Shown here: positions 7,360 to 8,443 of the stretch, piece by piece
How positions within the stretch are numbered: the first letter of the stretch is position 1
How the letters are laid out: every line of letters starts with the position of its first letter
Virus genome (UHGV): UHGV-1613228
DNA from: a virus
Length of the DNA: 12,378 bases
Strand: one strand, 5' to 3'
Program-made: the position numbers and the translations under genes
Notes under the pieces: generated by a model
Seen by the model: only the letters and a program-made list of their open reading frames with translations
The model's database searches: none
Told to the model about the DNA's origin: nothing

Positions 7360-7449
7360 ATCAATGACTCCGTACGCAATTAAATTATTACCAATTTAAC
7401 CACATATGATTTATTTATCGTAGGTAGTTGACATTTAACGCACAAATTA

Positions 7450-7464
7450 TTACCTTTCAGGTAA
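7450..7464. promoter_or_regulatory. Perfect inverted repeat TTACCT-TTC-AGGTAA, candidate operator
   Basis: 6-bp arms with a 3-bp spacer, seen directly. A TTGACA hexamer lies 17 bp upstream at 7428..7433. It sits in non-coding DNA between the portal operon and the tRNA. I could not find a convincing -10 element. Confidence 0.3.
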
Positions 7465-7786
7465 CCAAAGAGTTCATTCCGGTTACTAACCTGACTGGCT
7501 TGTCGTTAAATTGAACAGGTGGAGTGAGCTTTTATTTTGAGCAGTACGGCGTATGGCACATGCGCCGATAGCGGTCTGGATACGTTTAAGGGGCACCCTC
7601 CCTGGCTGTGGCAAACGAACCAGGTAGCCGGAATGTGCAAGTCGAGCGGTTTTATTCCGCGCACGGGGATTCACCATCCCGGCGATTCGGTGTGACGCCT
7701 CGGAAGAGACGAGGGTACAACGATGAGAGCATTTATGGAGCCGCGACAAAGTGTGGCGCCTTAACAGGCTAAGTGCTCTCAGCGTT

Positions 7787-7863
7787 GTGGCATTAGCTCA
7801 GCTGGACAGAGCAACCGCTTTCTAAGCGGTTGGTCGCAGGTTCGAATCCTGCATGCCACGCCA
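7787..7863 (+). tRNA. tRNA-Arg, anticodon UCU (reads AGA)
   Basis: Cloverleaf folded by hand: 7-bp acceptor stem GTGGCAT/ATGCCAC, D stem GCTC/GAGC, anticodon stem ACCGC/GCGGT with loop TTTCTAA (U33 present, anticodon TCT), 5-nt variable loop, T stem GCAGG/CCTGC with loop TTCGAAT, discriminator G and encoded CCA. 77 nt. Closely resembles enterobacterial argU-type tRNA. Confidence 0.93.
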
Positions 7864-7906
7864 GAATCACGCCTAAGGACCGTGATGCCAGAAGTTCCAG
7901 GGGCTT

Positions 7907-7948
7907 GGCGGTGATGGTTTCCCTTGAAGGACTATCACCGCCCTTTTT
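7907..7948 (+). terminator. Intrinsic terminator downstream of the tRNA
   Basis: 12-bp stem GGCGGTGATGGT / ACTATCACCGCC with one G-U pair, a 12-nt loop, then CTTTTT. Confidence 0.6.
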
Positions 7949-7982
7949 ACAGCATGACGCCATTGCGATGGCTTCATGCTGT
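7949..7982 (+). other. Long near-perfect hairpin, 15-bp stem with a 4-nt loop
   Basis: ACAGCATGACGCCAT-tgcg-ATGGCTTCATGCTGT, 14 of 15 positions paired. Starts right after the T-tract of the preceding terminator. No U-tract follows on either strand. Confidence 0.4.
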
Positions 7983-8022
7983 AAACCAGTACAGCCACGG
8001 AAGGCATAACTCATTGCTTCCA

Positions 8023-8049
8023 GCCCGCCGATTCGCCGGGCATTTTTTT
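8023..8049 (+). terminator. Intrinsic terminator or attenuator just upstream of the orphan gene
   Basis: GCCCG / CGGGC stem with a 9-nt loop, then A and seven T. It ends only 12 nt before the orphan gene's ATG and overlaps the region before its Shine-Dalgarno. Confidence 0.5.
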
Positions 8050-8061
8050 AAGGTGAAAATC

Positions 8062-8394
8062 ATGAAAGAGAAGACTGCAGCTGAGCGCTATGCCGCAGCT
8101 ATCAATGCCGCGATGGCGATTGTAAACCTGCGTGAAGAGATTAAAGATCTCCTTGCAATTATCCATAACAACCTGACATGTACAGAGTTGCTTGGCGGTC
8201 AGTACAACGGTGAGGCGGTGAAGGAGGCATTTAAAAATGCCGAGGTAGGAATAATTCCAGCAAACTATGTCAAGGCTGAATGTGTGCTCCTAAAGGCACG
8301 AGTGAGTCTGCATGAAGATCCTGGTAATCTCGGTCGAACTGCAATGCGTTACGTGATAGACGAGTCGAATGCCAAACACAATCTACCGAAATAA
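8062..8394 (+). CDS. Orphan hypothetical protein, 110 aa (moron cargo), function unknown
   Basis: ATG at 8062 with AGGTGA 5 nt upstream, TAA stop at 8392..8394, and its own terminator downstream. Opposite strand to all flanking phage genes. The ORF track's longer version (from 7924) starts at TTG and runs through three hairpins, so I reject that extension. No recognisable motif; no obvious transmembrane segment; predicted helical N-terminus. Confidence 0.7.
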   Translation: MKEKTAAERYAAAINAAMAIVNLREEIKDLLAIIHNNLTCTELLGGQYNGEAVKEAFKNAEVGIIPANYVKAECVLLKARVSLHEDPGNLGRTAMRYVIDESNAKHNLPK

Positions 8395-8398
8395 CACC

Positions 8399-8410
8399 GT
8401 GACATGTCAC
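8399..8410. promoter_or_regulatory. Perfect 12-bp palindrome GTGACATGTCAC, copy 1
   Basis: Seen directly. Lies between the orphan gene stop and its terminator hairpin. An identical copy occurs at 10664..10675, and the preceding C is also shared. Confidence 0.5.
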
Positions 8411-8414
8411 AAAC

Positions 8415-8443
8415 AGCCAGCCTATGAGCTGGCTTTGTTTTAT
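8415..8443 (+). terminator. Intrinsic terminator for the orphan gene, possibly bidirectional
   Basis: AGCCAGC / GCTGGCT 7-bp stem with a 6-nt loop, then TTGTTTTAT on the plus strand. On the minus strand the same hairpin is followed by GUUUGUG and lies about 50 nt after the TerL stop. Confidence 0.6.

Follow-up and report, generated by a model that had tools for sequence, protein, structure and literature searches.

The 12,378-nucleotide (nt) stretch of viral DNA analysed here, UHGV virus genome UHGV-1613228 (hereafter the window), carries between its terminase and head operons a plus-strand block that is a conserved early accessory unit, built of a new family of structured RNA, a transfer RNA (tRNA) and an exchangeable anti-defence slot. 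We are highly confident of this anatomy and of the reading of the gene position as a conserved slot, and we hold with moderate confidence that positions 7429-8442 form one conserved plus-strand accessory transcription unit of the phiV10/epsilon15-like phages, placed between those two operons.

The structured RNA and its distribution

The central element of the block is a folded RNA of ~245 nt with six helices and a pseudoknot, which we delineated by covariation and with a covariance model. Its parts, and the leader that precedes it, are as follows.

7465-7544, plus strand: 5' leader with a small hairpin, P0, from blastn, alignment and folding (7499-7544 conserved with epsilon15 and Klebsiella relatives)
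7545-7789, plus strand: structured RNA
7547-7553/7561-7567, plus strand: helix P1
7571-7578/7621-7628, plus strand: helix P2
7646-7649/7657-7660, plus strand: helix P3
7666-7669/7677-7680, plus strand: helix P4
7672-7675/7689-7692, plus strand: pseudoknot PK2
7698-7702/7710-7714, plus strand: helix P5
7716-7734/7771-7789, plus strand: helix P6
7556-7560/7634-7638, plus strand: candidate pseudoknot PK1 (GCACA:UGUGC), invariant and so without covariation signal

Across 32 diverse cores, helices P1, P2, P4 and P5 together with PK2 were paired in 99.2% of cells, and 12 pairs changed on both sides. None of 500 shuffles reached this level of pairing, and controls in which the pairing was slid along the sequence gave 25-42%. 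PK2 showed a compensatory switch from CACC:GGUG to AACC:GGUU in six sequences, and P6 covaried in 79 of 87 unique tails. The frequent G.U pairs identify the plus strand as the folded strand. Our covariance model, R1, scored the window copy at 146 bits and the copies from phage P1 and a Stenotrophomonas phage at 136-151 bits, and the unpaired blocks GGUAGCCGGAAUGUGCAAG and GGAAGAG were invariant from Escherichia to that Stenotrophomonas phage. When the Rfam 15 covariance models were run over 7380-8070, only the tRNA was matched, all other models having E > 0.03 and scores far below gathering; neither the whole window nor a short stretch searched at E <= 10 returned a family for the RNA. A literature search with sequence strings from the RNA found no paper containing them, and the paper on phage vB_EcoP_ZX5 does not discuss the region. 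We conclude that this is almost certainly a new structured RNA family.

The first-pass annotation of this DNA had described a 400-nt leader free of open reading frames (ORFs). Mechanical ORFs of 52 and 54 amino acids on the plus strand and 87 amino acids on the minus strand are present, none of them conserved, and the description is not true to the letter. The leader is not passive, as it holds a promoter/operator region and the conserved structured RNA common to lambdoid and P1 phages. A coding reading of the leader (the 87-residue minus-strand ORF; mEp460_037) was rejected on two grounds: core lengths of 148-180 nt differ by non-multiples of three, and substitutions track RNA pairing, G.U pairs included, rather than codons. 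In existing records mEp460_037/UTI89_C5094 is drawn antisense over the RNA (7486-7749, minus strand), and a 73-residue ORF that lies antisense to the tRNA and stem-loops (7793-8014, minus strand) matches phrog_4647, the annotated PhiV10p04. Several database 'hypothetical proteins' that cover the RNA, the tRNA or the stem-loops are probably spurious ORFs, among them the PhiV10p04/phrog_4647 and mEp460_037/UTI89_C5094 entries, both probably propagated between records. The anti-small-RNAs AgvB and AsxR of enterohaemorrhagic Escherichia coli prophages were also considered and found unrelated, being 51-60 nt long and located 3' of PR'.

Positions 7546-7790 match unrelated phages at 72-82% identity, and the RNA was found on no fewer than five phage backbones. 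The carriers include lambdoid phages (mEp460, cdtI, Ayreon, 2H10 and Stx2c, Stx2a and Stx2k phages), members of the P1 family (P1, P7, D6, SJ46, RCS47), podoviruses of Klebsiella, Salmonella and Enterobacter, and a Stenotrophomonas phage. Pattern scans recovered the RNA in at least 120 viral contigs and in ~16 true species genomes across Enterobacterales. It is also present in 1,840 of 5,426 complete E. coli genomes. Among the E. coli genome matches listed, no annotated feature lay on the RNA outside the tRNA overlap, and the NCBI PGAP pipeline leaves it unannotated.

In lambdoid phages cI is followed by a terminator, a pair of TTGCA-N5-GCAA palindromes, a plausible promoter PL and then the RNA, and a large hairpin with a U-run separates the RNA from the first early-left gene, which is not N-like. 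In mEp460 and Ayreon the RNA stands just downstream of cI, operators and a promoter; mEp460 has a Q-like regulator and no annotated N-type gene, and a 5-kb early-left operon lies behind its RNA and terminator. In phage P1 the RNA is found between trnI and ban, inside the C1-controlled ban operon. The window, lambdoid and P1 contexts are all early transcripts whose control by a repressor is known or predicted. A same-strand intrinsic terminator follows within 600 nt of the RNA in 85 of 104 non-redundant loci, against 19 with one on the other strand, which corresponds to about three of four independent lineages with phage P1 as the exception.

Several individual copies were observed to depart from the common form. 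The P1 copy (L007 2500-2679) has neither helix P6 nor a terminator after it, and sits before ban in a leader with a dicF-like region and three tRNAs. In epsilon15 (L002 4169-4259; 35.6 bits) the RNA is reduced to helix P1 and the start of P2, a deletion having joined this stump to the T1 terminator region described below with loss of the tRNA; the epsilon15 record annotates an 'RNaseIII' processing site just upstream of the remnant (L002 4073-4172). Further contexts, of two kinds, were seen in L032, L048, L078 and L086 and in L126, L031, L057 and L076: in one, a CAU-anticodon tRNA precedes the RNA and a terminase lies at a distance, ~3.4 kb downstream, and in another a DnaB-like gene is found on the opposite strand, ~4 kb upstream.

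The conserved frame and its exchangeable gene

Around the RNA, the block contains the elements listed here; the gene held in the slot is called the cargo.

7429-7457, plus strand: candidate sigma-70 promoter read from the sequence, TTGACA (7429-7434), 17 nt, TACCTT (7452-7457)
7450-7464, no strand: operator-like palindrome TTACCTTTCAGGTAA, exact match, between the divergent plus- and minus-strand units
7787-7863, plus strand: tRNA-Arg, anticodon UCU (ARAGORN; Rfam RF00005 at 71.1 bits, gathering score 29)
7907-7948, plus strand: T1, terminator-like, a 14-base-pair (bp) hairpin at 7907-7942 (-22.8 kcal/mol) followed by CUUUUU
7946-7985, plus strand: SL2, a 17-bp interrupted hairpin (-24.1 kcal/mol) with no U-run
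8023-8048, plus strand: T2, a GC hairpin at 8023-8040 (-10.4 kcal/mol) followed by U7, directly upstream of the cargo ribosome-binding site
8050-8394, plus strand: cargo gene, with ribosome-binding site AAGGTGA (8050-8056) and a 110-amino-acid ORF from the ATG at 8062 to the stop at 8394
8399-8410, no strand: perfect 12-bp palindrome GTGACATGTCAC, repeated at 10664-10675 upstream of TerS (0.03 copies expected by chance)
8415-8442, plus strand: T3, the cargo-gene terminator, 8415-8434 followed by UUUGUUUU, in the convergent gap with TerL (stop 8485)

Much of this anatomy had been recognised in the first-pass annotation and was borne out: ARAGORN and Rfam both called the plus-strand tRNA-Arg, three stem-loops do lie between the tRNA and the ORF, two of them (T1 and T2) being terminator-like, and the 110-residue gene has its own Shine-Dalgarno sequence and terminator at the positions given. 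T1 is kept in epsilon15 and phiV10 and resembles the hairpin that follows the RNA in mEp460. The equivalent of T2 is annotated as a rho-independent terminator in epsilon15, and the junction formed by the T2 hairpin, U7 and AAGGTGAAAATCATG is common to all cargo types. T3 is kept in phiV10, epsilon15 and SPN9TCW. No promoter was found between T1 and the cargo ATG, and T2 directly precedes the ribosome-binding site; T3 follows the gene.

The packaging and head region covered by the window comes from a temperate podovirus of the phiV10/epsilon15 type, genus Uetakevirus, and shares 96-98% identity with phiV10, vB_EcoP_ZX5 and the O157 typing phages 9 and 10. The genes on either side of the block, which abut or overlap on the minus strand as the first-pass annotation had stated and the ORF list agrees, are these:

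10631-9957, minus strand: TerS (PF03592)
9960-8485, minus strand: TerL
7140-7359, minus strand: gp3-like small gene, 68 amino acids from the ATG at 7359 in the ORF list, the ORF reaching a TTG at 7379
7138-5459, minus strand: portal (PF12236), followed by the head genes

The gp3-like gene is the first of the portal/head operon; its counterparts PhiV10p06 in phiV10 and gp3 in epsilon15 are annotated at 68 amino acids, and it has no Pfam or PHROG match.

The first-pass annotation had proposed that the ~1.1-kb block is an insertion splitting a contiguous terminase-portal operon. If this were the case, then TerL should adjoin the portal operon in relatives lacking the insert. We aligned the region with phiV10, epsilon15, SPN9TCW, Klebsiella ST512-KPC3phi13.3 and 42 contigs, and found the plus-strand block in every relative examined and TerL next to gp3/portal in none; the distance from the RNA to TerL ranged from 474 to 1435 nt in the 42 related loci. 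As for one conserved, annotated function in all relatives, which had been named as counting against an accessory insertion, the block proved to be conserved, and its cargo varied and carried no functional annotation in the records examined.

The corresponding interpretation, that a moron comprising the whole 1.1 kb recently entered an uninterrupted late operon of terminase and portal genes, that the prophage expresses it for lysogenic conversion or exclusion and that its 400-nt region is a mere tRNA or mRNA leader, draws on a strand opposite to the neighbours, its own ribosome-binding site and terminator, and a cargo that differs between close relatives. In the lambdoid morons, likewise, an extra gene with its own terminator lies between conserved late-gene blocks and varies among relatives (concept of Juhala et al. 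2000, as cited in PMC4104026). Unlike in those morons, the gene here is surrounded by a frame of promoter/operator, RNA, tRNA, terminators and junction that the whole genus has kept, and the block was seen in every relative examined, among them epsilon15, SPN1S-type, Klebsiella and Enterobacter phages; the classic order of promoter, gene and terminator is not followed, as a terminator stands ahead of the gene; and the promoter is apparently repressor-controlled, being overlapped by a predicted repressor site. The leader, moreover, is a covarying RNA common to unrelated phages, and the known cargo types are anti-defence sponges, active during infection. The comparative data largely refute a recent-insertion moron, and we regard it as highly improbable.

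What does change between relatives is the cargo. Compared with phiV10, the window aligns over 7000-8056 at 98% and over 8390-8800 at 96.6%, and the ORF between these segments does not align; in epsilon15 and SPN9TCW the flanks 7913-8065 and ~8397-8445 are kept around other genes. The 42 related loci have no fewer than 10 unrelated gene families among their slot occupants, and in some the slot is empty or retains a remnant. The suggestion of an accessory hot spot therefore holds for the 110-residue gene itself, which is replaced or absent at the same site in close relatives. The phiV10/epsilon15-type cargo, shared by several E. coli and Klebsiella relatives, matches PF13876 (1.4e-35), the Acb4 family of anti-CBASS sponges (bioRxiv 10.1101/2024.12.30.630793), and the Klebsiella-type cargo of ST512-KPC3phi13.3 matches PF11195 (4.2e-26), the Tad2 Thoeris sponge (bioRxiv 10.1101/2025.07.12.664507). 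Besides these two there are about eight further slot families; one relative has an HNH_3 homing endonuclease, and the remaining families had no Pfam match. The presence of Acb4 and Tad2 in the slots of relatives marks the site as an anti-defence hot spot, so that the earlier guess of anti-defence cargo was well founded.

Other loci showed further variations of the slot. The E. coli APEC E16002 prophage (L158, NZ_CP126944.1, 3022-3444) has an RNA 100% identical over 7540-7790 and a tRNA-Arg annotated at the same position, and its slot encodes a different hypothetical protein of 140 residues. In Klebsiella oxytoca-type relatives (L151-L154 5388-5642) a homologue of the 110-residue protein is followed by an 84-residue plus-strand gene before TerL, which indicates that the slot can hold two genes. 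The palindrome GTGACATGTCAC is also kept after the cargo in L148 and epsilon15. Its two copies in the window bracket the TerS-TerL module, one past the 3' end of TerL and one upstream of TerS, and a copy with one mismatch lies at 5399-5410; it may serve as a binding site for a regulator or mark where modules are exchanged.

The 110-residue protein of the window takes the place of the phiV10 Acb4-family gene, and belongs to phrog_27507 (3.5e-75). Only one other of our 142 loci (L146) carries it, and a K. oxytoca homologue occupies the same slot. Among 5.8 billion proteins the family comprised 15 close clusters, and a deep profile search added 46 more distant ones, nearly all of 100-115 residues; distant members lie near terminase or VRR_NUC genes in other phages. 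The AlphaFold (AF2) model reached a predicted local distance difference test (pLDDT) score of 95.4 with the deep alignment, up from 56 with 14 sequences, a rise that came only with the deep profile search. It is made up of one long and two short helices, a sheet of three strands and a helix at the C terminus, and had no significant structural relative in PDB or BFVD and no fold similarity to solved sponge structures. None of 14 family members had a Pfam match at E <= 5, and the protein matches neither PF13876 nor PF11195 by sequence; NCBIfam, PADLOC and PDB sequence searches gave no match, and tblastn against 50,697 phage records found nothing. As in the Acb4 and Tad2 loci, a small single gene has been swapped between near-identical backbones, and the occurrence of those sponges in the same slot of relatives makes the protein a candidate new anti-defence factor. 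We judge this assignment, made by analogy of position, to be an even call.

Same-strand tRNAs abut the RNA in 51 of 142 loci. In 31 of these a tRNA-Arg(UCU) is flush with the 3' end of the RNA and overlaps the base of P6, as in the window, where tRNA bases 1-3 do so; in the other 20 a CAU-anticodon tRNA, annotated trnI (tRNA-Ile) in phage P1, lies at the 5' end. An acceptor/T-arm-like closure follows P6 in 15 of 23 'GTGGTG'-type loci and is absent from 34 'GTGGTA'-type sequences. A general tRNA-like module after P6 in the loci lacking a tRNA was accordingly rejected, being confined to one subclass and not scored by the Rfam tRNA model. Individual instances include L079 (3680-4075), whose P6 insert contains the T-arm GGUUCGAUUCC and which has another P6-like hairpin arranged in tandem; L148 (3190-3330), with a tRNA-like piece GUGGUG...GUCGGUUCGACUCCGGCCACCAC-AACCA; and mEp460 (L004 2741-2872), which has GUGGUGAAU...GCCGGAGAUCAGCnCCGGnCACCAC-AAC in common with L079. 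Codon supply as the purpose of the tRNA was not supported for the genes of the window: AGA occurs at 2.7 per 1000 codons in its 13 minus-strand genes and is absent from the cargo, and neither AGA nor AGG is enriched in the genes of the window. Speculatively, the main use of the tRNA may be in processing, as a handle, or in resisting defences that target tRNAs.

Expression of the unit and possible action of the RNA

The palindrome TTACCTTTCAGGTAA overlaps the candidate promoter, whose TTGACA-17-TACCTT layout is kept in epsilon15 even though the spacer has diverged. The epsilon15 record annotates the homologous site as 'repressor; lysogeny', with an IHF site adjoining it. Overlap of the promoter by a predicted repressor palindrome of this annotated type points to expression on infection or induction, and not to the lysogenic conversion that the first-pass annotation had entertained. 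A weaker second operator-like copy, TTACCGTTGTGGTAA, was found at 10571-10585, within the TerS ORF as listed (224 amino acids); in epsilon15 the equivalent site lies upstream of a shorter TerS, near its start, and the TerS Pfam match begins at residue 45. From these three observations the true TerS start may be further downstream than listed.

We propose that the unit would start at the TTGACA-17-TACCTT promoter, which the overlapping palindrome would place under repressor control, and would be switched on by infection or induction in the manner of lambdoid PL and P1 Pban, two other settings of this RNA. RNase P cleavage at the 5' end of the tRNA would release the RNA with U7786 as its 3' end. 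The RNA would resemble put in function, being a processive antiterminator that acts on the polymerase during transcription, so that polymerase would read through T1 and T2 into the cargo gene, and, in lambdoid phages lacking N, through the strong terminator into the early-left operon. The 110-residue protein would then counter a host anti-phage system. That the RNA is a put-like processive antiterminator is a tentative proposal by analogy, which we consider possible and somewhat short of probable. Antitermination fits best because the RNA lies right after early promoters, because its lambdoid carriers are without N, and because T2 stands before every cargo ribosome-binding site. Release by RNase P is supported by P6 ending on tRNA bases 1-3, by the abutting tRNAs, and by the acceptor/T-arm-like closure that replaces the tRNA in part of the remaining loci.

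Two kinds of protein-independent antiterminator RNA offer a comparison. EAR (eps-associated RNA) of Bacillus is a structured operon RNA of ~120 nt that brings about read-through of distal terminators with no dedicated protein, and is represented in Rfam; the RNA described here differs from it in phylum, size and sequence and matched no Rfam family. The put RNAs of HK022 and HK639 are cis-acting processive antiterminators that bind the zinc-binding domain of the RNA polymerase beta' subunit. Like put, our RNA is structured and protein-free, and in lambdoid phages lacking N it occupies the leader just past the early promoter PL, with terminators beyond it: mEp460 presents the order cI, operators, RNA, terminator and early-left genes with no N annotated, and the window presents promoter/operator, RNA and T1/T2. 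HK022, which is N-less, uses putL for antitermination, and put needs no tether to the transcript to remain active (PMC9378689), which makes RNase P release compatible with put-like action. Unlike put, which is ~70 nt long (126 nt annotated in HK639) and has two stem-loops, the RNA has a ~170-nt core plus P6, with six helices and one or more pseudoknots; it is present in one copy per phage rather than as putL and putR; and it also occurs beside tRNAs, in phage P1 and in podoviruses. Membership of the put family was rejected: model R1 found nothing in HK022 or HK639, and comparison of the RNA with HK639 put scored 26 against 24.3 +/- 4.0 for shuffled sequence, which is chance level, the put sequences of HK639 and HK022 themselves being 90% identical over 30 nt.

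A number of observations weigh against the proposal. Each phage has a single RNA and none on the PR side, and the P1 copy, which is without P6, has its promoter ~2.4 kb away and is followed by no terminator. The count of 85 in 104 loci with a terminator stems from only about four lineages. The RNA is two to three times larger than put or EAR and unrelated to them in sequence, and a processive antiterminator would also pass T3 into antisense TerL. The order of promoter, RNA (with or without tRNA) and terminator also resembles an ordinary stable-RNA gene, and the cargo-less locus L079 keeps the RNA, though it appears to be a deletion derivative. For the promoter, a strict scan made no call at 7429-7457, the -10 element being weak (3/6), and the 'repressor site' label is an annotator's prediction in another phage, epsilon15. 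The anti-defence role of the 110-residue protein is guilt by position alone, and an HNH endonuclease and other non-defence genes occupy the slot as well.

Part of this evidence would be accounted for if the RNA were a stand-alone, stable, trans-acting non-coding RNA gene, cut by RNase P from a tRNA or tRNA-like handle and ended by T1, that acts on a conserved host machine or defence factor, with the cargo expressed by leaky read-through or from a weak promoter of its own. The tRNA flush on one side in those 51 loci and overlapped by the P6 base at bases 1-3, the closure in the 15 'GTGGTG'-type loci, and the terminator shortly downstream in most contexts are what such a gene would show. The RNA is kept in the cargo-less or cargo-truncated loci L079 and L118; since cargo-less loci look like deletion derivatives, they are indecisive on antitermination. 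The long invariant unpaired blocks GGUAGCCGGAAUGUGCAAG and GGAAGAG suggest a conserved binding partner. ROOL (~580 nt) and GOLLD (~800 nt), two Rfam families of other bacterial groups, are likewise ornate, strongly conserved RNAs carried by phages and prophages and often found beside tRNA genes; our RNA is much smaller and matched neither. A stand-alone gene would, however, give no account of how the early-left operon of N-less lambdoid phages is expressed from behind a strong terminator, and would leave the position of T2 directly before the cargo ribosome-binding site unexplained. No target or partner can be named for it, and the tRNA-like closure, which the Rfam tRNA model does not score, is missing from all 34 'GTGGTA'-type sequences. 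We rate a stand-alone gene as doubtful. It and antitermination are not exclusive, since put stays active without a tether.

The multi-helix junction, covarying pseudoknot and invariant joining strands are also typical of ligand pockets and catalytic cores, and the RNA occurs in 5' leaders ahead of terminators, as a ligand-sensing riboswitch or a self-cleaving or processing ribozyme would if it gated or matured the early transcript. Against this, no Rfam family of either kind was found even at the permissive threshold on the short stretch. The terminators lie 100-250 nt past P6, with a whole tRNA between them in the window, so that there is no overlapping expression platform, and no alternative antiterminator pairing was seen. 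The downstream genes are too varied for one ligand. We consider a riboswitch or ribozyme improbable.

Significance for temperate phages

The RNA is common and yet unannotated, being present in 34% of complete E. coli genomes, in phage P1, and in Stx-converting and other lambdoid phages. Its position is always within an early transcript under known or predicted repressor control, so that many temperate phages probably have it as part of their basic early programme. Should the RNA modify RNA polymerase, this would explain early-left expression in N-less lambdoid phages such as mEp460, cdtI and several Stx2c phages. The furthest-reaching interpretation is one that we advance with reserve and think rather unlikely: the RNA would be the founder of a third and much larger class of antiterminator RNAs, which need no protein and are directed at polymerase, or else of a new kind of early effector RNA of phages; by horizontal transfer it would have reached lambdoid, P1-like and epsilon15-like temperate phages, and in the present group it would drive an exchangeable anti-defence slot, with the 110-residue protein a new immune-evasion protein of new fold. 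The slot itself is a natural catalogue, in which the families other than Acb4 and Tad2 become priority candidates for new counter-defence functions, among them the 110-residue protein with its confident, unmatched fold.

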